DNA from: Synechococcales cyanobacterium VAR_4_metabat_354
GTDB taxonomy: Bacteria; Cyanobacteriota; Cyanobacteriia; Cyanobacteriales; Chamaesiphonaceae
NCBI GenBank assembly: GCA_031414775.1
Contig: JANOQI010000029.1
Coordinates: 1-31,387 of the forward strand
Length of the DNA: 31,387 bases
Direction: 5' to 3'
The notes under the pieces were generated by a model. That model saw only the letters and a list, made by a program, of their open reading frames with translations. It was not told the origin of the DNA and did not search any database. This document shows positions 11,694 through 31,387 of the stretch, piece after piece. The position numbers and the translations under genes are program-made. Positions within the stretch are counted from its first letter, which is position 1. Every line of letters begins with the position of its first letter.

Positions 11694-14600
11694 ATGTTTG
11701 AAAATCAAAGCAACGCCCAAAATGTTTTGCTCGGCTCGGGCATTCAATTTTTCACCGGAGCGGTTTCTAACTATGACGGCGTAGACTATTACAAACTACA
11801 AGTGAATAGTCGTAGTAGTCTAAACCTGAGTTTGTCTGAATTGACTGGAGATGCCAATGTTTATTTACTAGATAGTGCTGGTGCGTCGTTAGATTTCTCT
11901 ACTCTAACTGGCAACAGTTCAGAGGCGATTAACACTACGCTGGATGCGGGGACTTATTTTGTTAAAGTCGATTTTGCTAGAGACAATCAAGGCGCAGCGA
12001 ATCTGCCATACCAGTTAGCGATTGCTAACAATTCGATTTTTAGCAATATTGATGACAAGAATCCTAATGGTCAAAAGTTTTATGCTGGAGATTTTAACGG
12101 TGATGGTATTCAGGATATCTTTCGTCAAGAACGCGGGAATTTGGTCGATGGCGATAAAGATGCCGAAGTTTTATTAGGAAATGTTGCCGGAGGATTCGAC
12201 ACCATCCAAATTGCCAATGCTGAGTTATTCCAAGGCAACAAGAACCGATTGGTTTTGGGAGATTTCAACGGCGATGGCCAGACCGATATCATTCGTCAGG
12301 AATACGATGGCTGGGTAGATGGAGTTAGCAAAACTCAATTCGTTTCTTTCCAGGATGGAAATTTTCAGGTAGTGGCCGATCTCCAAGATATGAATATGAT
12401 GCGGGGAGATTTGACCAATCTGATTGCCGGAGATTTTAATGGTGATGGTCGGGACGATTTAATTCGCCAAGAAAAAGGTGGATTGGTTGATGGTAATCGC
12501 GATGTAGAGCTATATATTTCCGACGGTAAGTTTAAGTGGTCTAGTCAGAAGGTCTTACCTAACTCGCCCACACTGAATGGTAATGACACCTTACTGGTAG
12601 CTGGAGATTTTATTGCCGGTGGTGGTAAAGACTTAATACGGATCGAGACTAATAGCACTTTGATTGACGGGATTGGGGATATTCAGTATCTTTCCTACAA
12701 AAATGGCAACATGTTAGTGGCTGGTAACAACCCTACTAATATTGCGCCTAAAGCTCCCTTGATTAATGGTGTGAAGTCTAGTTACGATGCTAACTCTACC
12801 CTCACTCTGACTAATAGTTATGTTTTTGATAGTAATGGTTGGAAAGATGTTAGTAAAGTGGATTTCTGGCTGACTAATGCTCAGGGGCAGCGGATTGAGT
12901 TGAAAGATGCTAGTGGTTTTACATCTTACAATGCCAACTACTCACAATTTAAATACAGTACTAGTCTCAGTGGGATTGCCGTAGGTGCGTATAAGCTAAA
13001 TGCGGTAGCTTATGATAAAGCTGGATCAGCAAGTAATCAGTTTACTAAATCCTTTAAAATTATTAATAATGCACCGCAATCTTTACTGATTAATGGCCTG
13101 AAGTCTAGCTATGATGCTAACTCTACTCTATCGATCGATAGCGGTTCGATCACTGATAATAATGGCTGGCAAGATGTTAGTAAGGTGGATTTCTGGCTGA
13201 CTAATGCTAAGGGGCAGCGGATTGAATTAGATGATGCTAATAGCTTTGCTGCTAAGAGTCAAAATTCTGCTAAGTTTAGTTACAATGCTAGTCTCGATGG
13301 CATCGCAGTTGGCAATTACAAGTTAAATGCGGTTGCTTACGATCAAGCTGGGGCGATGAGTAAGCAGTTTGCTCAATCCTTTAAAGTTATTAATAACGCG
13401 CCTCAAATTTTACTAATTAATGGTGTGAAATCTAGCTATGATTTAAACTCTACTCTATTGATCGATAGCGGTTCGATTACCGACAATAATGGTTGGAAAG
13501 ATGTTAGTAAAGTAGATTTTTGGCTGACAAATTCCCAGGGAAAACGGATTGAATTAGATGATGTCAAAAGTTTTACTACTAATGGCCAAAATTCAGCTAA
13601 ATTTAATTACAGCACTAGTCTCCAGGGTCTGACCGTGGGCAATTATAGACTCAATGCTGTAGCTTATGATCAATCTGGGGTGGTGAGCAATCAGGTTACT
13701 AAGTCATTTGCCATTGGAGATCCTGATTGGTTTATTTTAAACTTAAAAGATGCTGATACGATCGATCTAGTTCGGGCATCAGCACAAGATGGAAAACTGG
13801 ATCGGAATGAGGTACTTGCTATTCTTAAAGGAATGAAAGATGGTGGCGTAGTTAATGACTCTGAGCTTTCTGATCTGAAAAGCTTGATCGCAACTAACGA
13901 TAATAATCTATTCACAATGTCTGACTCGGTTCGCTACTTGTCTAACAAAATTGCGATCGAATCTGCTCCTAACTTCACCACTGAGCAATTTGAGTCGGCG
14001 ATCGGCAAGTGGTTCAAAGGAACGGTTGCTCCCACTGCCAAATTCAATGGAATAACCATCCAGTACGAGCGAGTTACCGGCAGCTTATTTGGAAAGAGTA
14101 ATCAAGCCCGCATTGGGGATATCGATCAGGGCGGTCTGAATGATTGTGTATTGCTGGCATCTTTAGCCGCAACGTTTGCCTCTCAATCGAATGATGCTGG
14201 TAATAGTAGTAGCCAAGTTATTAACGATATGCTTATCGATAATGGCGACAATACTTACTCCGTGCGCTTCTACAACCAAAATCAAAAAGCGGAATGGGTA
14301 ACAGTCGATAATCGATTAGCTAAAGAACAGCAAAATGTCTTGAGAGCAAGTAAGAGCGGTGGCTTGTGGGTACCAATTATTGAAAAAGCTTACGCTCAGT
14401 GGTTTGAACTCAATAAAGACCCCAAAGACTTGAGTACCAAAACTGGCTGGGATATTATCGGCAATGGTGACTATTACAGCGTTGGTTTGCAGCGCATCAC
14501 CGGTCGTACTAATCAATACCATTGGAAAGATGGCGGTTCTAGCGACTATAGCTTTAATCTAATTAAAGAATCCCTCGCCAAAGGACAGGCAATTCTGGCC

Positions 14601-14825
14601 GGTAATGCACAGGATAGTTCTAAATTTATTCTTAACCATGCCTATAGTGTGACCAATGCTTATCTGGATAGCAATGGTAAGGAGCGGGTAGTAGTTCGTA
14701 ATCCCTGGGGAATCGATAAAAGAAATGAAAAAGGCTATAGTGTCGCTGTGACAGGCTCTAATGATGGATTTGTTGACTTGTCGTTTAGTGAGTTTCGGAG
14801 CTTCACCGAAGTTAATATTGCTTAG
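11694..14825 (+). CDS. Large modular protein: PPC domain, FG-GAP/VCBS repeats, three Ig-like repeats, calpain-like (C2) cysteine peptidase
   Basis: N-terminal DYYK..LSELTGDANVYLLD..GTYFVKV (PPC); three GDFNGDG motifs; three 109-aa repeats; C-terminal IDQGGLNDC, EKAYA, NHAYSV, RNPWG catalytic motifs. Confidence 0.82.
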   Translation: MFENQSNAQNVLLGSGIQFFTGAVSNYDGVDYYKLQVNSRSSLNLSLSELTGDANVYLLDSAGASLDFSTLTGNSSEAINTTLDAGTYFVKVDFARDNQGAANLPYQLAIANNSIFSNIDDKNPNGQKFYAGDFNGDGIQDIFRQERGNLVDGDKDAEVLLGNVAGGFDTIQIANAELFQGNKNRLVLGDFNGDGQTDIIRQEYDGWVDGVSKTQFVSFQDGNFQVVADLQDMNMMRGDLTNLIAGDFNGDGRDDLIRQEKGGLVDGNRDVELYISDGKFKWSSQKVLPNSPTLNGNDTLLVAGDFIAGGGKDLIRIETNSTLIDGIGDIQYLSYKNGNMLVAGNNPTNIAPKAPLINGVKSSYDANSTLTLTNSYVFDSNGWKDVSKVDFWLTNAQGQRIELKDASGFTSYNANYSQFKYSTSLSGIAVGAYKLNAVAYDKAGSASNQFTKSFKIINNAPQSLLINGLKSSYDANSTLSIDSGSITDNNGWQDVSKVDFWLTNAKGQRIELDDANSFAAKSQNSAKFSYNASLDGIAVGNYKLNAVAYDQAGAMSKQFAQSFKVINNAPQILLINGVKSSYDLNSTLLIDSGSITDNNGWKDVSKVDFWLTNSQGKRIELDDVKSFTTNGQNSAKFNYSTSLQGLTVGNYRLNAVAYDQSGVVSNQVTKSFAIGDPDWFILNLKDADTIDLVRASAQDGKLDRNEVLAILKGMKDGGVVNDSELSDLKSLIATNDNNLFTMSDSVRYLSNKIAIESAPNFTTEQFESAIGKWFKGTVAPTAKFNGITIQYERVTGSLFGKSNQARIGDIDQGGLNDCVLLASLAATFASQSNDAGNSSSQVINDMLIDNGDNTYSVRFYNQNQKAEWVTVDNRLAKEQQNVLRASKSGGLWVPIIEKAYAQWFELNKDPKDLSTKTGWDIIGNGDYYSVGLQRITGRTNQYHWKDGGSSDYSFNLIKESLAKGQAILAGNAQDSSKFILNHAYSVTNAYLDSNGKERVVVRNPWGIDKRNEKGYSVAVTGSNDGFVDLSFSEFRSFTEVNIA
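12740..13715 (+). repeat. Three tandem intragenic repeats with a 327-bp (109-aa) period
   Basis: ATTAATGG anchors at 12762, 13089 and 13416; each unit carries NGWxDVSKVDFWLTNxxGxRIEL and YxLNAVAYD. Boundaries approximate. Confidence 0.9.
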
Positions 14826-21190: not shown

Positions 21191-21988
21191 CTATTTCTGT
21201 GGTGTTGGCATATTAATGAACGGCACCGCCCCATTGCCACCCATGACCGTTGGGAATTTACCATCCCACTTCTCGATCGCCTGTTTTTCCAGTAGCTCTT
21301 TGTTGAGGCTTTGTCTAAGTAATTTTTGGGCTTCGGCGGTGCCCTTTGCCCGGTTGACTTCAGCTTCCGCTTGCCGAGTAGCTTTTAACGCTTCAAACTC
21401 GGCTTTTTTAGCATCTTGTTCGGCGATTTGTTTCTGTTCGATCGACTTAGTAAAATCTGGTGAAAATCCAATGTTAACTAGGGAGACATCATCAACCTGT
21501 AGTCCGTATTTTACTAGTCTAGGTTTCAGGGCCTTTTCAATTTCCTCTTTTAAAGTTCCCCGCTGTTTGAGGATCTCTTCGGCTGTTCTTTGCGGAGTAG
21601 TCGATTTGAGAACTTCGGAAATTGCTGGAATAATTATAGTGTTTTGTACCTGTTGATCGTCGCCTACCTGTTGATAAACCCAATTAGCTCGATTAGCCAC
21701 AATATGCCAATTGACGGCTGTTTTAACATCTAGTGTTTGTAAGTCTTTGGTACCAACTTTGGCAGTGACATCAACTTTCTTAACCCGAACGCTCATTTTT
21801 TTGACATTTGTATAAATCGGTAAAACGAAGTGAAATCCTTCATCGAGGGTTTTTTCTTGAACTTGGCCAAAATGCATTACTACCCCCCGTTCGCCAGCAT
21901 TAATTACCGTGAACGGTCTGAGCATGAAAGCTAATACTAAGAAGAATACTCCACCACCCATGTATACATATGACTTTAGATTGTCCAT
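21191..21988 (-). CDS. Prohibitin/SPFH (band 7) family protein
   Basis: N-terminal TM, AGERGVVMHFG, TKDLQ, FTKSIEQKQIAEQ, AE-rich coiled coil, IEKWDGKFP. Confidence 0.92.
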   Translation of the reverse strand: MDNLKSYVYMGGGVFFLVLAFMLRPFTVINAGERGVVMHFGQVQEKTLDEGFHFVLPIYTNVKKMSVRVKKVDVTAKVGTKDLQTLDVKTAVNWHIVANRANWVYQQVGDDQQVQNTIIIPAISEVLKSTTPQRTAEEILKQRGTLKEEIEKALKPRLVKYGLQVDDVSLVNIGFSPDFTKSIEQKQIAEQDAKKAEFEALKATRQAEAEVNRAKGTAEAQKLLRQSLNKELLEKQAIEKWDGKFPTVMGGNGAVPFINMPTPQK

Positions 21989-22026: not shown

Positions 22027-22056
22027 TAGTTGGGATGGCTGTTACGGGAATATGCA
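22027..22056 (-). promoter_or_regulatory. Putative cognate-sigma promoter for the SPFH gene
   Basis: Minus strand reads TGCATA-TTCCCGTAACAGCCATC (17)-CCAACTA, 38 nt before ATG 21988. Confidence 0.55.
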
Positions 22057-22145
22057 AAAATATTAAAATTAATTCTTCTGAAAATTTTTGATTTCTAAGG
22101 ATGATGGTAACTTTATTGATTTTTGTAACAAATTGGAATTAGCTG

Positions 22146-22174
22146 TGCATAAAACTAATTTGAGCGACCAATTA
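22146..22174 (+). promoter_or_regulatory. Putative cognate-sigma (autoregulatory) promoter
   Basis: TGCATA-AAACTAATTTGAGCGA (16)-CCAATTA, 44 nt before ATG 22219. Confidence 0.55.
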
Positions 22175-22218
22175 AGCTGTGTCGGAGTTATCGCTTGTGA
22201 TATTTAGAGACCCGAGAC

Positions 22219-23529
22219 ATGTTCCAATTTACTGAAGCTGAAATATTTACTAAAATCATTGCCTATCAAGAGCAAGCTAATTTCTCGCGACTAACCCTCA
22301 AGCTGTCTAATAAATTACAACGATCGATCGACTCCCGTTGGCAGGCCATTTTACAGGCGAACCCAACAGTCGAAGATACTAGTGATGTTTTTAAAATCCT
22401 CGCCCAAAATCTATTTGATGAATTGCAAGACAACCCGAGCGACGTACTCTTGGCTCATTGGCTGTCTTTCCTTTGTGATCTAGCACTAGCTGTATCGAAG
22501 GCAATATTGAAAATTGTTGATGTGCAGCGTAGTCCAAGTTGTTTACTAGATATTCAGAGTATCTGTATTGGATCGATCGGCAACCCCCGGCAGTTTTTTG
22601 GGGGCTTTGATCTAAAATCTTCCCGGAAAAGTAATTTGCTGGTGAGCTTGCAAGCTTATGCTTACCGAGCCATTAAGTACTCAGCTTATCCAGCTATTCG
22701 GCAAGAATTCGGTGATCCAAATATCGGGCGGAGTAACCTGGGTTTATTTAATCACTATAGTGATGCAGCTGTCTCGGATGCTTTACTGAAAATTGGACTA
22801 GAGCCAGCTACGCAAGACCAATATTTTGCTCTTTGTCGTTGCGCTAAAGAATATCTACGTCAGAATAGTAAAAAAATCAATCAACTCCAACCCGATGACT
22901 TCGATCGCATTGGTGATTTATACCAAGTAATTACTGGCGATTTACCGCCGCCGGTACGGGACAGACTCGAAAAAATTGGTGTGGCTATTCGTCAATCGAC
23001 ATCCCCTCTGATTCTATCGATCGATATGCCGCTCAGCACGAGTGATGAAAATAATCAGACGATGGCAGATACCATTGCATCCCTAGAGCCGCAGCCAGAT
23101 GTATGTGTAGAGATGCAAGACATTCAATCCGATTGGCGAAATATCTGCAATTGTTGGCTCAGTGCTAACATTCAGCCGCGCGATCGACAAATGTTGTACT
23201 TGCGGTATCACTGCCATCTGAAGCAAGATGTGATTGGATCGATTATTCGTATTGATCAAACGAATGTTGCCAAACGGCTAAGAAAAATTCATTTAGGACT
23301 AGCCCGAATTCTGATCCAGCAAACTAATCCAGAAAGTAGTATCAACCTGATAGAAATTTGTAAACTCGTTGTAGAAATGCTTCAAGAAAGCTTCGATCAA
23401 TTAAGTATTGCCCAGATTAGTTCCGAAGATCAGCAGGATTTGGCAGTATTAATTCAGATCTATCGAGAACAAAAGGAGCCAGCTTTAGCGGAGAAAATCA
23501 GGACAATACTAGAACGGCTCTGGAATTAA
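22219..23529 (+). CDS. Atypical sigma-70 family RNA polymerase sigma factor-like protein
   Basis: Region 2-like FDLKSS..SLQAYAYRAIK; region 3.2-like LSIDMPL...TMADTI; region 4 HTH MLYLRYHCHLKQDVIGSIIRIDQTNVAKRLRK; upstream of DUF1822. Confidence 0.72.
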   Translation: MFQFTEAEIFTKIIAYQEQANFSRLTLKLSNKLQRSIDSRWQAILQANPTVEDTSDVFKILAQNLFDELQDNPSDVLLAHWLSFLCDLALAVSKAILKIVDVQRSPSCLLDIQSICIGSIGNPRQFFGGFDLKSSRKSNLLVSLQAYAYRAIKYSAYPAIRQEFGDPNIGRSNLGLFNHYSDAAVSDALLKIGLEPATQDQYFALCRCAKEYLRQNSKKINQLQPDDFDRIGDLYQVITGDLPPPVRDRLEKIGVAIRQSTSPLILSIDMPLSTSDENNQTMADTIASLEPQPDVCVEMQDIQSDWRNICNCWLSANIQPRDRQMLYLRYHCHLKQDVIGSIIRIDQTNVAKRLRKIHLGLARILIQQTNPESSINLIEICKLVVEMLQESFDQLSIAQISSEDQQDLAVLIQIYREQKEPALAEKIRTILERLWN

Positions 23530-23558
23530 TGCATAAACAGCTTTCTTCAACTCAACTA
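23530..23558 (+). promoter_or_regulatory. Putative cognate-sigma promoter for the DUF1822-CHAT genes
   Basis: TGCATA-AACAGCTTTCTTCAAC (16)-TCAACTA immediately after the sigma stop codon, 26 nt before ATG 23585. Confidence 0.6.
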
Positions 23559-23584
23559 ATAATTGTCACTATTATTCGGTCTAT

Positions 23585-25030
23585 ATGAAAACTAACACTA
23601 GTAATTTAGCTATGCTGCATCAATTAAGCCAAATTTACTCTGAGCATGAATGGATCAATCTTGAAAATTACCCTAATGTAATTACTGAGGATACTAACTC
23701 GATTTCTCTGAATTTGCAATGCCTACAGGTAATTAAGGTGTGGATTGAGAAAACAATCGGGTTGCCGATCGAATATGATTTTCCCTATCGAGGATATTTG
23801 GATGAGGATCAACAGGTTAGTGAATTGCTCAATGGTTTTTGCCTGAAGGTGAATGGTTCTAAAGTCGTTTTTATTCCTAGCCAAAATATAGATATCACTA
23901 GCTGTGAAATTTCTCAGGAATGGGTGGATTTGCCAAACTGGGCTGGTGATTATTATGTACCAGTTCAAGTGGATGTAGAGGCTAAATACTTGCATCTTTG
24001 GGGTATAGCTACTCATCAACAACTGAAGCAGTCTGCCAGATTAGATTCACTTTTTCGCTACTATCATGTGGGTATCGATCGCCTGAACCATAATATGGGT
24101 TTATTGTGGACTAGTTGTGAATTAGCTCCGCTGCCCAGAAGTGAACATATTCCAAATTTAGCAGCAGTAAGCAGTACTCAAGCACAACAGTTAATTGAAC
24201 GTTTGTTATCAAAATCATCGGCCAGTTTCCTGCGGTTAACTTTATCTTTTAGCGAGTGGGGCGCAATATTAAATTCTCCTCCATACCTTAAACACTACCT
24301 AGCAAGCAGAACTCCCAAAGTAGATGCCCCCCCCATATTTACGATGTTGCAAGAATTATTAAAGAAAGAGGTAAGTACTTTATATCAACAGTGGGAAACT
24401 GTAGAGTCTTTTATTAATCTCCCTTTACCGAGCATGTCTTTTCGCAGTAACCGCAATGGTGTATCTAAATTACTACGTGAAAAAAACTATCGAGGTATTC
24501 CGCTAGAAACACCAGACCAAATCAAAGTGGCGGCAGACCAGCTTTATCGTAGTCAAAAAGAAATTAATGTACCTCGTTCGATTACTGGGGTGGAAAATTT
24601 AGTTGAGTTGATGGAAAAATCTACCAATGAGACGATTCGTTGGAAAGCTACCGAATATCTGTGGACGATCGATCCTGAGCATCCTAAATTACCAATGAGA
24701 CGGATTCGTGATTTAGGAATTCAGTTTGCGACTGGTTCGATCGCTTTGATGATAGCTCAACTCCCCTTGGACAGCAATCGTTGCGCTATTTTGCTGAGAG
24801 TTTATCCCGTCAGCGCTGAGGTCTATTTACCAGGTGGGGTGAGATTGTCGATTTTAGATGGAAGTGGTGATGAGGTTTTGCTTGGTGCTGGCCAGCCTTT
24901 TGAGGCGATATCAAGAAGTGAACCGCAGGACAGTTATATTCAATTATATTTTGTTGCCGATAGAGGCGATCGATTTGATGTTTGTGTTAATTTAAGTGAA
25001 CAGCAATTCACTGAACAATTCATAGTTTAA
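23585..25030 (+). CDS. DUF1822 family protein (candidate anti-sigma)
   Basis: EWVDLPNWAGDYYVPVQV..LWG N-domain and LLRVYP..YLP.GVRLSILD..G..DSYIQL.F..GDRF..FTEQF C-domain, recognised from cyanobacterial DUF1822 proteins. Confidence 0.82.
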   Translation: MKTNTSNLAMLHQLSQIYSEHEWINLENYPNVITEDTNSISLNLQCLQVIKVWIEKTIGLPIEYDFPYRGYLDEDQQVSELLNGFCLKVNGSKVVFIPSQNIDITSCEISQEWVDLPNWAGDYYVPVQVDVEAKYLHLWGIATHQQLKQSARLDSLFRYYHVGIDRLNHNMGLLWTSCELAPLPRSEHIPNLAAVSSTQAQQLIERLLSKSSASFLRLTLSFSEWGAILNSPPYLKHYLASRTPKVDAPPIFTMLQELLKKEVSTLYQQWETVESFINLPLPSMSFRSNRNGVSKLLREKNYRGIPLETPDQIKVAADQLYRSQKEINVPRSITGVENLVELMEKSTNETIRWKATEYLWTIDPEHPKLPMRRIRDLGIQFATGSIALMIAQLPLDSNRCAILLRVYPVSAEVYLPGGVRLSILDGSGDEVLLGAGQPFEAISRSEPQDSYIQLYFVADRGDRFDVCVNLSEQQFTEQFIV

Positions 25031-25048
25031 GGTCTTTGTGGAAAAACC

Positions 25049-27844
25049 ATGCTAGACAACAGTAACATTCGGCTTAAAACAGTAAATTTAAAGATTACAG
25101 GAATATCTAAAGAGCTACTTTCGATCGAGGTGGCGGTCAGATATACCGATAACAACAAATTAGTTAGTTCAACTGTTTTTGGTTCATTGCCACCGTTGCC
25201 TCAAGAACTATTGGATGCATACGCCGATTGGAAACGCAGTTATTTATCTTGGGGTAAAACTCATCGATATTGGAAAAATCAAGGTAAATCAATAGAAAAA
25301 TCTATTGATCCAAATCAAGACAGATCAATAAAAATACCTACTGATCCGATCGAAACTAATATAAGCATTCAAGACTGCGACACCTTAGAAGAAAAACTGA
25401 TTCAGAAGTTCAACTCTTGGTTAGATGTTCATGAATCTCCAGGATTATCTAAGGTTGCTGCGAGCTTAATTACTAGTGCCCAACCTGACGATTATAGAGA
25501 TCACCCAGAATTATTATCTTTTATTGTTCAAACCAAAACTAGTGATTCTCAGCTAAATTTGAATTTGCAAAAGCTGCCCTGGAATGAGTGGGAGTTTATT
25601 CGAAATAACTATAATAATTCTGGCATTGCCCTAAGCACAGAGAGAGCACCAATTGTTGAAAGACAGCAACATCAGTTGAAGGCTTTGGTAATTTGTGGGC
25701 AGTACGATGAATCAGCTAATCAAATTGATCTAAAACCGGACTTAGCTGCTTTACGAGAACATTTGGGTTATATTGATTTAGAGATTTTAAAATGTAACTC
25801 CACCACATCGAAGCCAGAATTATTGAAAAAACTAGATGAGTCAACTTATAATTTACTATTTTTTTGTGGACATTCTTCCTCTAATAATCAAATTCAACTC
25901 AATGATTCGGAATATATATTCTCAGATGATCCTAAATTTAGAGGGATCTTAACCAAATTAAAAAATAAGGGGTTGATCCTAGCTTTTTTCAATAGCTGTG
26001 ATGGTTTAGGAATTGCACATTCGATCATGTCTGTGGGAATTCCTTATGTGGTAGTTATGAAGGAACCAGTCCATGATGGTGTAGCTCAAAATTTTATCGA
26101 AAATTTTCTCAAAGAAGCTACTAAACCGCAACGACCTATTCACTTAGCTGTTCATGAAGCAAGGTTGGCATTGCAGTGGCTAGCAGGATTGCCACATGGT
26201 GAGTTTTTACCAGTTTTATTTCAAAATCCGGAGCAGCCACCGCTGTATCTTAATCCACAACTAATTACTCAACCGACAAAAATACCTACTCCACGACCTA
26301 AGTGGATTAAATACTTAATAGTTGCAGCCATATCAGCACTTGCTATATTGATTTGGGCTAGCGCTCCAGAACTAAAAAAAATGTTTGTAACTTTTACTTA
26401 TCCGTCAATTTGCAAATTTGCTGATGAAAATAAAGATATCGGTTGTGGGGAAGAACCTTTGCTAGTTCAAGCAGGTGGATCTGAATCTCAAGCAAAAAAA
26501 GAAGGGTTTGATTTAATAAAAAAAGGCTTAAATAACCCACTTTCATATTCACACGTAATTCCACTTCTAGAAAAAGATTGGAAAGAAAAACACGATCCAG
26601 AAACTGCTATCGCGATCGAAAACGCTTCGATCGCTCTTCAATCATCTCAAGGTGCAAAATTTCAAGTAAAAAACATCGCTATTGTTGCACCTACTAAAAC
26701 CAACACCCCTTTTTCTATAGCCGATAGCCTTCTGAAGGGGATTGCTTACGCTCAACAACAACATAATCGAGCGAACCAAGATTGGAAATTGCGAGTGATC
26801 ATTGCCAATGATGAGAATGACCCATCCTCAGCGCTAAAAATTGCTTTAGCCTTAGCTAATCGTGAAGACATTTTAGGAATAATTGGCCATTACAGTTCTT
26901 ATGTTACTGTCCCAATTGTTAATAAAGAAAGAATCTACGAAAATAAAGTAGTTTTAATTTCGCCAACGGCCACTTCACATGAACTTACTGACAGTAGTAA
27001 CTTCTTTTTTAGAGTGGTACCTTCTAGCGTGGTTTCTGCGAAAGATATGGCTAAAAAATGGATGACCCCAGATAAGAAAATAGTCATATTTTATAGACCA
27101 GATCGAGAGTTCAGTAACTCTTTGACAAAAATGTTTGAGAGCGCAATAAATGCTAAATCCATTATTAAGAAAGTAGATCTAGGCAAAGCCAATAACATTT
27201 CTAATGAGATTAAGGAGGCTAAAAGACTAGGGGCTAACGCGATCGTATTATTTCCTGATGCTTATACCGGAGAGAAGAGAATTAATGATCGATCGGCAGA
27301 AATTCTGAGACAAAATAATGGAGAAATGCCAATTCTAGGAAATACTTCCATCTATGATTTATATGATGATCATTCTCAAACTAAGTTAAAAAAATTATAT
27401 GAAAATGTAGTAATGGCTATTCCTTGGGAATACCAGGATACTTTGAATAGTAAGGCTCAGTATAACAAGAAGTTGATTGTTGAAGATGATGATGCAAAAT
27501 CCAAACACAATGAATTACCATACATACCGTCATGGTGGCTTACTGATCAAAAGTCAATATCCACTATTAATGAAAGAATTGTCATGAGTTATGATGCTAC
27601 GTTAGTCCTCATTAAGGCTTTAAATAAAGATCACAACAACTCAGATTTCGGAAAAGTAGTAAGAAGCAAAGCCGAGGAGCGCTTGGCTATTCAAAAATTA
27701 ATCAATGATAGAGATTTTCGTCTTGAAGGTATTACAGGTAATATTAGCTTTGTTGGCAGCGATCGAAAAGAAGAAATGAACAGCTTAGTTACTCCTACTT
27801 GTGACGAAACTCAATGTAATGGATTAAAACCTTATCGTAAATAG
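25049..27844 (+). CDS. CHAT-domain protease / TM / LivJ-type periplasmic binding domain fusion
   Basis: LQKLPWNEW, LFFCGHS (His275), AFFNSCDG (Cys317), LPVLFQN; TM from Trp419; binding-domain motifs LLKGIAYAQ, ANDENDP, GIIGHYSS, ISPTATS, FFRVVPS, GITGNISF. Confidence 0.85.
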   Translation: MLDNSNIRLKTVNLKITGISKELLSIEVAVRYTDNNKLVSSTVFGSLPPLPQELLDAYADWKRSYLSWGKTHRYWKNQGKSIEKSIDPNQDRSIKIPTDPIETNISIQDCDTLEEKLIQKFNSWLDVHESPGLSKVAASLITSAQPDDYRDHPELLSFIVQTKTSDSQLNLNLQKLPWNEWEFIRNNYNNSGIALSTERAPIVERQQHQLKALVICGQYDESANQIDLKPDLAALREHLGYIDLEILKCNSTTSKPELLKKLDESTYNLLFFCGHSSSNNQIQLNDSEYIFSDDPKFRGILTKLKNKGLILAFFNSCDGLGIAHSIMSVGIPYVVVMKEPVHDGVAQNFIENFLKEATKPQRPIHLAVHEARLALQWLAGLPHGEFLPVLFQNPEQPPLYLNPQLITQPTKIPTPRPKWIKYLIVAAISALAILIWASAPELKKMFVTFTYPSICKFADENKDIGCGEEPLLVQAGGSESQAKKEGFDLIKKGLNNPLSYSHVIPLLEKDWKEKHDPETAIAIENASIALQSSQGAKFQVKNIAIVAPTKTNTPFSIADSLLKGIAYAQQQHNRANQDWKLRVIIANDENDPSSALKIALALANREDILGIIGHYSSYVTVPIVNKERIYENKVVLISPTATSHELTDSSNFFFRVVPSSVVSAKDMAKKWMTPDKKIVIFYRPDREFSNSLTKMFESAINAKSIIKKVDLGKANNISNEIKEAKRLGANAIVLFPDAYTGEKRINDRSAEILRQNNGEMPILGNTSIYDLYDDHSQTKLKKLYENVVMAIPWEYQDTLNSKAQYNKKLIVEDDDAKSKHNELPYIPSWWLTDQKSISTINERIVMSYDATLVLIKALNKDHNNSDFGKVVRSKAEERLAIQKLINDRDFRLEGITGNISFVGSDRKEEMNSLVTPTCDETQCNGLKPYRK

Positions 27845-28182
27845 ATAAAATTAATTATACAGATAAGTATTTATTTGAAGTATGGTTAGTATTTCTCTAA
27901 CTAGACCATAAAATCTTCCCACGTAAAAATCAAATATTCATCTAATCGCCTAATAACTATATTTTAGCGTTCAATTTACTACGCCGAAATTCGTGGTAGG
28001 TGTTTTACCCAAGTCCAATAAAATCGTGATACTTCACAGCATACAGAAACAATTTACAAAATAAAAGTCAATAATCATATTAATATTACCTCTAGATTAT
28101 TAGTAGCTACCAATGCTGAGCATAAATATCCTATTTGGGTCAAAGTGATCCGAACCAGTTTCCAATTTTAATTTCTAGAAAA

Positions 28183-28211
28183 TGCATAAAAATTTGAAAC
28201 CAACCCAACTA
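28183..28211 (+). promoter_or_regulatory. Putative cognate-sigma promoter for the stand-alone binding protein
   Basis: TGCATA-AAAATTTGAAACCAAC (16)-CCAACTA, 31 nt before ATG 28243. Confidence 0.6.
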
Positions 28212-30514: not shown

Positions 30515-31029
30515 TTAGTTTTTCTGGTTTGTCGGTGGTTGATCTATGATCACTTCGACAGGACGCAAAAGGTGTTCATCAATTTTAAATCCTTGCCTGA
30601 TTATTTTACTGATCGTAGGTGCTTGCACTTCTGGACTAATTTGTGTATCTACAATCTGACATAGATCCAGATCTGATTCTATATTAGTGATTTCTATTCT
30701 TTTTACCTGCTTTCTTCCTAGAGTTGCCAGAAGTTTGCTTTGAATAGTATCAAGTGATTTAGGTAAGCGCTTAATAACACGTTCGCTTAGTTCTTGATTA
30801 GTTTCAAAATAACAGATCAAAGACTCTAAAGCATCAAATATTTCTAGAAGTTCCAAAAATAACTGTTCATTGTCGGCGATATTTTTTATATCTTGATTTG
30901 CTAACGACTGTTGAAGAGATATTTTTCTTTCAATAAAAATTTTATTTGCTCGATGGTTTGTTGCTGTTGTTCTTGGCTAATAATCAGATTATATACTGAT
31001 GAAGATTGTTGTTGATGATTATGATTCAT
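30515..31029 (-). pseudogene. GrpE-like nucleotide exchange factor with a -1 frameshift
   Basis: The C-part has LFLELLEIFDALE and KIIRQGFKIDEHLLRPVEVII. The N-part from ATG 31029 (MNHNHQQ..IKFLLKEK) is one base out of frame, plausibly at the T5 run 30922-30926. Confidence 0.68.
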
Positions 31030-31032
31030 TAC

Positions 31033-31248
31033 TTATGCCTCCCAAACTAAGTTCGCTAATTCTTCATTACTTTTACCTTCCATATTTTCTTGATTTAATT
31101 TATCGATCTCTATCTGAATTAGTCGATTAATTTGTGCAGGATATAGTTCTTTTTGAGCTTGATCTTCGATCTGATCATCACTACCAAAATTTGAGAAACG
31201 AAAACGTTTAACTAATGGAATGATAGGACTTAGATAGTCTGCTATTAT
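31033..31248 (-). pseudogene. 3' remnant of an IS-interrupted gene, probably a small DnaJ-like protein
   Basis: IIADYLSPIIPLVKRFRFS begins exactly at the IS terminus with no native start. It resembles, from memory, the IIADYLRP segment of cyanobacterial J-like proteins found upstream of grpE-like genes. Confidence 0.5.
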
Positions 31249-31387
31249 CAATAGTCCGGACAGATTTATGGTGTCAAAGAACCGTACTGAAGAAGACTGG
31301 CGTAGTTGGGATGGGATTTAATCAAAGTCAGGTCAAGGTCTAACATGGAAATAAATCGCTCAAGTAAATGACGATTGAGTGCTTGTC
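31249..31387 (-). mobile_element. 3' end of a second copy of the IS4-like element
   Basis: Reverse complement of bases 1-139 with 5 mismatches; the transposase tail at 31266-31385 reads QALNRHLLERFISMLDLDLTLIKSHPNYASLLQYGSLTP*. Confidence 0.75.

Follow-up and report, generated by a model that had tools for sequence, protein, structure and literature searches.

A conserved two-box promoter, probably cognate to the adjacent sigma factor, in a cyanobacterial sigma/DUF1822/CHAT-protease locus

Background

Cassettes in which a sigma factor gene is accompanied by genes for a DUF1822 protein and a caspase-domain protein are common in cyanobacteria and known computationally. One of them lies in a stretch of 31,387 nucleotides (nt) from Synechococcales cyanobacterium VAR_4_metabat_354 (Chamaesiphonaceae; contig JANOQI010000029.1), hereafter the window. 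It encodes a divergent sigma factor, a predicted anti-sigma factor (DUF1822) and a receptor with a CHAT (caspase-like) protease domain, a transmembrane helix and a periplasmic binding domain. A gene for an SPFH/Band 7 membrane protein diverges from the sigma gene, and a porin gene remnant, a stand-alone binding-protein gene and a PspA/Vipp1-like gene follow downstream (Table 1). A sequence-only reading of the window had proposed that a bipartite motif, TGCATA-N16/17-YCAAYTA, shared by four of these genes, is the cognate promoter of the sigma factor and defines an autoregulated regulon. Our analysis indicates that the promoter is real and conserved and that it probably belongs to the sigma factor beside it; the system as such is computationally known, and its targets and feedback feature are probably new.

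EACC2-caspase/ECF sigma/DUF1822 systems were catalogued computationally by Kaur et al. (2021, eLife, PMC8195603). As far as the main text of that paper goes, a protease-driven transcriptional output is proposed there, unaccompanied by experiments. The present locus resembles that system in bringing sigma, DUF1822 and caspase-domain genes into one neighbourhood, and in its caspase/CHAT protein, which has a module at the N-terminus and, linked to the membrane, a variable C-terminal sensor. The words promoter, periplasmic, PBP, PspA and SPFH are absent from the main text of Kaur et al., which, unlike the present analysis, gives no motif, regulon or protease-less receptor. Among the matches listed for EACC2 in the open-access literature only this paper appeared, and TGCATA was not found there as a cyanobacterial sigma promoter motif.

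Results and discussion

The motif in the window and in its genome

All four motif copies stand where they had been reported, on the reported strands; each is intergenic and oriented towards its own gene, and the claimed gaps of 26-44 nt hold, with 38, 44, 26 and 31 nt between Boxes 1 to 4 and their start codons. TGCATA-N14..19-CAAYTA has 4 matches in the window, against a mean of 0.08 and a maximum of 1 in 100 shuffles. On an extended matrix three copies score 17.3-24.2, and the other 22 scored gene starts of the window reach at most 2.3, in agreement with the earlier statement that housekeeping genes carry no copy. Beyond the first description, the analysis brought out PspA/Vipp1-like and porin targets, a decayed fifth copy and an intragenic copy in relatives.

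Table 1 Genes and promoter boxes of the locus (positions in the window; the last row refers to related loci)
Feature	Position	Strand	Basis or remark
SPFH/Band 7 membrane protein, 265 aa (amino acids), likely regulon member	21191..21988	-	PF01145, E 9e-38
Box 1	22027..22056	-	SPFH gene; N17 spacer, weak copy; kept in genome G007; predicted start ~22020-22019
Box 2	22146..22174	+	before sigma gene; predicted +1 G22181
Divergent sigma70-family factor (predicted fold), 436 aa	22219..23529	+	TIGR02937, E 3e-6, below cut-off; fold match
Box 3	23530..23558	+	immediately after sigma stop codon, before DUF1822; predicted +1 G23565; top-scoring site of the genome
DUF1822 protein, predicted anti-sigma factor, 481 aa	23585..25030	+	PF08852, E 4e-54
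CHAT (caspase-like) protease - transmembrane helix - periplasmic binding domain, 931 aa	25049..27844	+	PF12770, PF13458, PF01094
Decayed fifth box	27920..27948	+	before oprB remnant; aligns with intact box preceding oprB in G007
OprB porin gene remnant, last 70 codons, frameshifted	27963..28168	+	tblastn, 60-65% identity to residues 337-408 of G007 porin
Box 4	28183..28211	+	before stand-alone binding protein; predicted +1 A28218
Stand-alone membrane-anchored periplasmic binding protein, 458 aa	28243..29619	+	PF13458, PF01094; protease-less counterpart of receptor
Likely PspA/Vipp1-like coiled-coil protein, divergent, 235 aa	29713..30420	+	likely co-transcribed from Box 4
Intragenic box inside CHAT-receptor gene	L041, L042, L046, L047, L085, L092, L101, L106, L107, L248, L249, L251		

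The source genome is near-complete (3.56 Mb). At N16-19 the exact pattern has 5 matches in it, 4 of them in one 6.2-kb stretch, and other spacings give 0-3 each. The exact pattern thus shows no genome-wide enrichment at this spacing, and the signal lies in its local clustering and its conservation. In a matrix scan of the genome the DUF1822 box ranks 1, the binding-protein box 2 and the sigma box 5. A genome-wide regulon in this organism was rejected, the scan yielding 36 sites at score 13 against 28-32 in shuffles. Two weaker intergenic boxes elsewhere in the genome, each about 50 nt before a gene, are possible further targets: C16:25308 (+), before a secreted-protein gene, and C35:93492 (+), before a pentapeptide-repeat-like gene.

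Conservation across relatives

The orthologous locus of genome G007, whose sigma factor is 68% identical, keeps all four boxes; box positions are identical to the window at 51/52, as compared to 28/37 for mid-spacer positions (three equal-length pairs). The longer form that Boxes 3 and 4 had been said to share is correct for the window, but its CAAC extension is lacking in G007 and was rejected as a general feature of the motif, since relatives do not keep it.

A de novo two-box search covered 39 regions, taken ahead of the sigma gene and around its stop codon, from 21 loci of independent relatives, mostly Chamaesiphonaceae, with the window and G007 excluded. The same two-box motif was recovered as TRCATAAA-N14/15-YCAAKYA, with the consensus (T/C)(G/A)CATAAA followed by YCAA(T/G)(T/C)A. 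Sites at N16 (26) and N17 (8) account for 34/39. Its information is 14.2, against 9.6-10.3 in four shuffles, a comparison weakened by the fewer restarts with which the shuffled controls ran. Matrix scores of at least 13 are reached by 46/54 clade regions, a count likewise weakened in that 34 of the 54 had trained the matrix. Regions of other sigma/DUF1822 pairs reach this score in 2/106, and the remaining 104 attain at most 6.4; both exceptions belong to one clade member misfiled owing to its truncated DUF1822. The box is conserved across loci whose sigma factors share only 20-30% identity. The same gene set recurs in family f9, where a variant box stands ahead of the sigma gene in 3/4 loci and ahead of the PspA-like gene in 4/4, and family f8 has a box before DUF1822.

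The cassette, defined by a full-length DUF1822, is present in 21/39 family genomes. A strict pattern has 49 matches against 9 controls in these 21 genomes and 12 against 6 in the 18 others; since the genomes compared are related, which weakens the comparison, none of the genome counts is an independent test.

Several loci vary on this theme. In L089, L094, L090, L095, L111 and others the TAA stop codon of the sigma gene is itself part of the -35 box of the DUF1822 promoter (CA-TAA). In G016 (L034:8833-10924) a separate 166-aa open reading frame resembling the sigma N-terminus precedes the sigma gene, and no box was found before either. No single motif common to the other sigma/DUF1822 pairs emerged (best 11.4, shuffles 9.9-10.2). 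A different two-box motif, AAACAT .. TGTAGTAAAG, lies upstream of another sigma/DUF1822 clade (L048, L055, L056, L060, L061, L065 and L076; family f7 and others).

Promoter geometry and start site

The transcription start was predicted before testing. The boxes were mapped on the promoter geometry of sigmaHetZ of Anabaena PCC 7120 (Hu et al. 2026, PNAS, PMC13342950; -35 box at -35..-30, second box from -13), which places +1 seven bases past the motif. A pyrimidine-purine step (YR) stands at the predicted -1/+1 in 32/34 sites, the next best position reaching 17/34. Held-out sites scored without downstream columns have YR at +1 in 25/32 (next best position 18), although these sites were hand-picked, which lessens their weight. 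Three of the four window copies fit (Boxes 2, 3 and 4); the SPFH copy counts against the rule, lacking YR at the canonical +1 and having it one base further on. Because YR stands at the position predicted beforehand, we consider it very likely that the motif is a real -35 (TRCATA)/-10 (YCAAKYA) promoter, and the initial view of the 16-17 nt spacer as -35/-10 geometry is supported by this initiator signal and by boxes that are better conserved than the spacers between them.

The motif might instead bind a regulator that works at sigmaA promoters, as its operator or activator site, or it might function at the level of RNA. A TATAAT-like hexamer within TGCATAAT, AT-rich DNA past the second box and the short, fairly constant distance between box and start codon would suit such a site. 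Yet two unlike boxes 16-17 nt apart with YR fixed 7 nt past the second fit the geometry of a polymerase; the motif is not palindromic, sigma70-type consensus sites show no enrichment (25 against 33.9 in shuffles), and an RNA element would have to lie in boxes that sit upstream of the predicted transcript. We judge this alternative very improbable.

The sigma factor, DUF1822 and the CHAT receptor

The model of the sigma gene product has the fold of a sigma70-family factor. TIGR02937 is matched by 30/39 aligned family members; the model reaches a pLDDT (predicted local distance difference test) of 84.5, and the 50 Foldseek matches listed are without exception sigma factors or RNA polymerase-sigma complexes, only 2 of them reaching E 0.001. 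The helix-turn-helix of region 4 is present (profile match to SigF region 4, E 2e-5; sigmaH region 4, Z 9.3, root-mean-square deviation 2.6, 75 aligned), with QTNVAKR as recognition helix. Region 2 lies ahead of it, according to structural alignments over residues 59-370 to WhiG, AlgU, SigL and SigB (Z 7.6-8.6, with a high deviation from domain movement). A single-sequence PDB search with the sigma factor gave nothing useful.

The predicted sigma-DUF1822 complex scores 0.78, a mark reached by 116/157 solved pairs and 2/215 mismatched pairs, and the best control scores 0.00. The runs share at least 65% of contacts with partner pLDDT of at least 76, and the interface takes in sigma residues 347-362, the region 4 recognition helix. 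DUF1822 is thus predicted to bind the sigma factor and to cover the helix that reads the -35 box, as expected of an anti-sigma factor. The CHAT receptor has an intact catalytic pair (His275 and Cys317, invariant in 12/12 homologs). Some 210 residues lie N-terminal to its CHAT domain, and its hydrophobicity peaks at residue 420. The receptor gene carries no box of its own in the window.

Candidate members of the regulon

That the divergent SPFH gene belongs to the system, as the sequence-only reading had it, gains support in trans. Orthologs 60-76% identical lie on contigs away from the sigma gene, and a recognisable box is present in 7/7 of those for which upstream DNA is available, six having extended scores of 12-25 and one of 3.2; paralogs 44-47% identical have it in 0/14, none scoring above 0.6. 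Four further matches in this survey were partial and set aside.

OprB porin genes are boxed in G007 and G022. In the window, where oprB was deleted, the box has decayed; in G007 the gene is intact and boxed. Judged by this sequence comparison, the decayed box beside the oprB remnant serves as a natural control. Stand-alone binding-protein genes carry the box in 7/8 cases. In the closest relatives the PspA-like gene comes after the boxed binding-protein gene; it has its own box in G022 and G035 (2/26 loci examined). The identity of its product is likely but not firm: the top profile matches (E 0.006 over 185 residues) and the top Foldseek matches (E 0.003) are Vipp1/PspA and Vipp1, values that fall short of firm thresholds for a coiled coil, and PF04012 is found in 3/15 members of the family. 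Boxes also precede an outer-membrane beta-barrel-like gene at L164 and L190 (G017 and G019; N15 spacer) and a small secreted protein gene at L176 and L196 (G031 and G034).

During envelope stress in Bacillus, PspA and SPFH proteins are established targets of sigmaW (PMC8581546), and we therefore suggest, by analogy, that the box targets point to an envelope-stress regulon.

Which sigma factor reads the box?

For the earlier proposal that the box is the cognate promoter of the adjacent sigma factor, promoter features and conservation speak; that this very factor reads it, we infer. From position and conservation we hold it probable that the box is read by the sigma factor of the window. The competing account keeps the promoter and has a widespread host sigma factor, or another sigma/DUF1822 member, read it, the cassette being one client of a general envelope-stress regulon. 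Several observations weigh against our reading and mostly in favour of this one. The recognition helix of region 4 varies widely among sigma factors that share the box (QTNVAKR, QSKVSRK, PGTVSRR, FANIIKP). A looser pattern is in excess in genomes with the cassette (146 against 62 controls) and also in those without it (81 against 44). The core group-2 sigma gene is boxed in 7/19 genomes with the cassette and in 2/11 without, and boxes with no cassette detected stand before this gene in G023 and G018, before the SPFH gene in G011 (93% complete) and before a secreted-protein gene in G031 (84% complete). Finally, the SPFH copy in the window is the weakest of the four, scoring 1.1 with the extended and 8.9 with the core matrix.

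On the other side, the source genome has no matrix excess over shuffles apart from the cassette, unlike a core regulon, and clade boxes are found ahead of the sigma gene, at the stop codon of that gene and within the receptor gene, while being absent from 104 regions of other sigma/DUF1822 pairs. Moreover, fragmented assemblies (770-850 contigs) account for two of the four genomes that have boxes but no detected cassette. In view of the helix variation, the boxes in cassette-free genomes and the loose-pattern excess we retain reading by a host sigma factor as an unlikely alternative. The group-2 sigma box itself lies ~170-260 nt upstream in 9/30 genomes, with its start shifted by one base (L280-L283, L290, L294, L296, L298, L299).

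An intragenic box and a protease-less receptor

We surveyed 15 receptor genes in which the binding domain shares at least 40% identity with the stand-alone protein of the window. Twelve of the 15, three of them cut by contig ends, hold an in-frame box between the CHAT domain and the membrane helix. The second box of these copies is YCTARTA or similar, with YR at +1 in 10/12, and is followed by a purine-rich, ribosome-site-like stretch and an in-frame ATG (5) or GTG (7). The internal start in the fused genes coincides with the start of the stand-alone protein, in one case within one or two codons. Hence the internal box would, from its sequence, give rise to a protease-less receptor isoform.

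Synonymous codons beneath the box are constrained. All 12 genes use CAT for the His that underlies the -35 box; in nine full genes no other of the 7 invariant His columns has a fixed codon. For the Leu beneath the -10 box 11/12 genes use CTA (4/44 Leu columns have a fixed codon), and the codon after it ends in TA for three different amino acids.

Chance matches, or functionless leftovers of local duplications, would sit well with the lack of genome-wide enrichment of the exact pattern at N16-19 and with the weak SPFH copy. Conservation of the box across such divergent sigma factors, its presence in trans, its loss together with a target gene and the codon constraint all contradict such an origin, which the de novo recovery, YR at +1 and the SPFH orthologs largely refute; we give it hardly any credence.

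The two arrangements of the promoter are mostly alternatives. Receptor genes without an internal box (G007, G013, G033 and the window) belong to genomes with a separate boxed binding-protein gene. For 8/10 genome-assigned internal-box genes no separate gene was found in the genome; a second cassette is present in each of the two remaining genomes. A quick, preliminary tree places the G013 and G033 genes within the internal-box genes (support 94 and 84), a position consistent with loss of the box. Stand-alone genes group in a separate clade of this tree; their direct derivation from the internal-box clade is not supported. In G002, G005 and G012 neither form is present, so that a protease-less receptor is not universal.

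A sigma-induced receptor without a protease would most simply be a brake, a decoy sensor that would soak up ligand or poison receptor dimers; it may also be a co-receptor or scavenger. We put forward, tentatively and as somewhat short of an even chance, a self-damping circuit in which a promoter inside the receptor's own gene, or a separate boxed decoy gene as in the window, drives the decoy along with PspA/Vipp1-like, SPFH and porin proteins.

Proposed mechanism and comparison with known systems

Boxes before the sigma gene and at its 3' end, together with the SPFH link in trans, uphold the idea of an autoregulated regulon. A ligand at the periplasmic domain would activate the CHAT protease, which would cleave DUF1822, by analogy to HetF and PatU3; cutting of DUF1822 by this membrane protease would free the sigma factor. 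Freed sigma would transcribe its own gene from Box 2 as positive feedback, and Box 3 would drive anti-sigma factor and receptor as negative feedback. From Box 4 the protease-less receptor and the PspA/Vipp1-like protein would be made, and from Box 1 the SPFH protein, joined in relatives by the OprB porin. Such targets suggest that the system responds to stress on the membrane or envelope. A cognate promoter and a sigma factor held by DUF1822 and released by CHAT are, taken as a whole, the probable explanation of the locus; the complete protease-gated chain is plausible with some reserve, falling a little below even odds. A conserved Arg cleavage site in DUF1822 was rejected: Arg at the candidate linker site (FR287S in the window) occurs in only 6/13 homologs, which speaks against the chain.

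A close parallel is sigmaHetZ-PatU3-HetF of Anabaena PCC 7120 (PMC13342950; PMC9457339), whose sigma factor has been reconstituted in E. coli together with cyanobacterial core RNA polymerase. As described there, that system likewise has a large cyanobacterial sigma70-type factor, an anti-sigma gene directly downstream on a sigma-dependent promoter, a CHAT protease, namely HetF, which cuts the anti-sigma factor (cleavage being presumed in our case), and two promoter boxes 16-17 nt apart. It differs in its promoter, TCCGGA-N16/17-TGnA, and helix, RQRDYLQQ, as against TRCATA/YCAAKYA and QTNVAKR, and in serving heterocyst genes, whereas the outputs here are membrane proteins. HetZ-family membership of the window sigma factor was rejected (no NF037963 match at E 0.001; hhalign probability 3.6%), and a HetZ-related cluster in the Atlas at 0.89 is only a lead. 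DUF1822 against PatU gave 0.1% with hhalign, PatU being a shallow alignment of three sequences. By analogy, the present system would work like sigmaHetZ-PatU3-HetF without being a member of that family. The HetZ model matches two other genes of the source genome, on C24 (L274) and C57 (L278); the C24 protein keeps the RQRDYLQQ helix, and patU was not seen beside its gene within the fetched locus.

The sigmaW regulon of Bacillus subtilis, as set out in PMC8581546, similarly places PspA and SPFH under an alternative sigma factor in envelope stress. Its sigma factor, anti-sigma factor and protease are unrelated to those considered here, and the likeness is in outputs only. The anti-sigma factor RsiW is cleaved by membrane proteases. 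In E. coli rpoE-rseABC both the sigma gene and the anti-sigma gene have sigma-dependent promoters, those of the latter lying at the 3' end of the sigma gene, and the anti-sigma factor is a membrane protein cut by DegS and RseP, unlike the soluble DUF1822 and CHAT receptor of the present locus.

Base-level start predictions and a list of targets make the clade testable, and the targets are a first functional hint for it, namely membrane protection. If true, the model would bring PspA/Vipp1 and SPFH in cyanobacteria under a further, caspase-gated route of control. Bacterial signalling would also gain an unusual feedback design, in which a promoter within a gene yields a receptor lacking the protease and a duplicated gene can take its place.

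Other features of the window

Two further features lie outside the locus. At 11694-14825 a 1043-aa surface protein is encoded that, judged by eye, has FG-GAP-like repeats, tandem Ig-like repeats and a C-terminal cysteine-peptidase-like region. At 30515-31387 (-) a broken GrpE-like frame and adjacent reading frames with stops and frameshifts are likely a decayed chaperone-type gene cluster.

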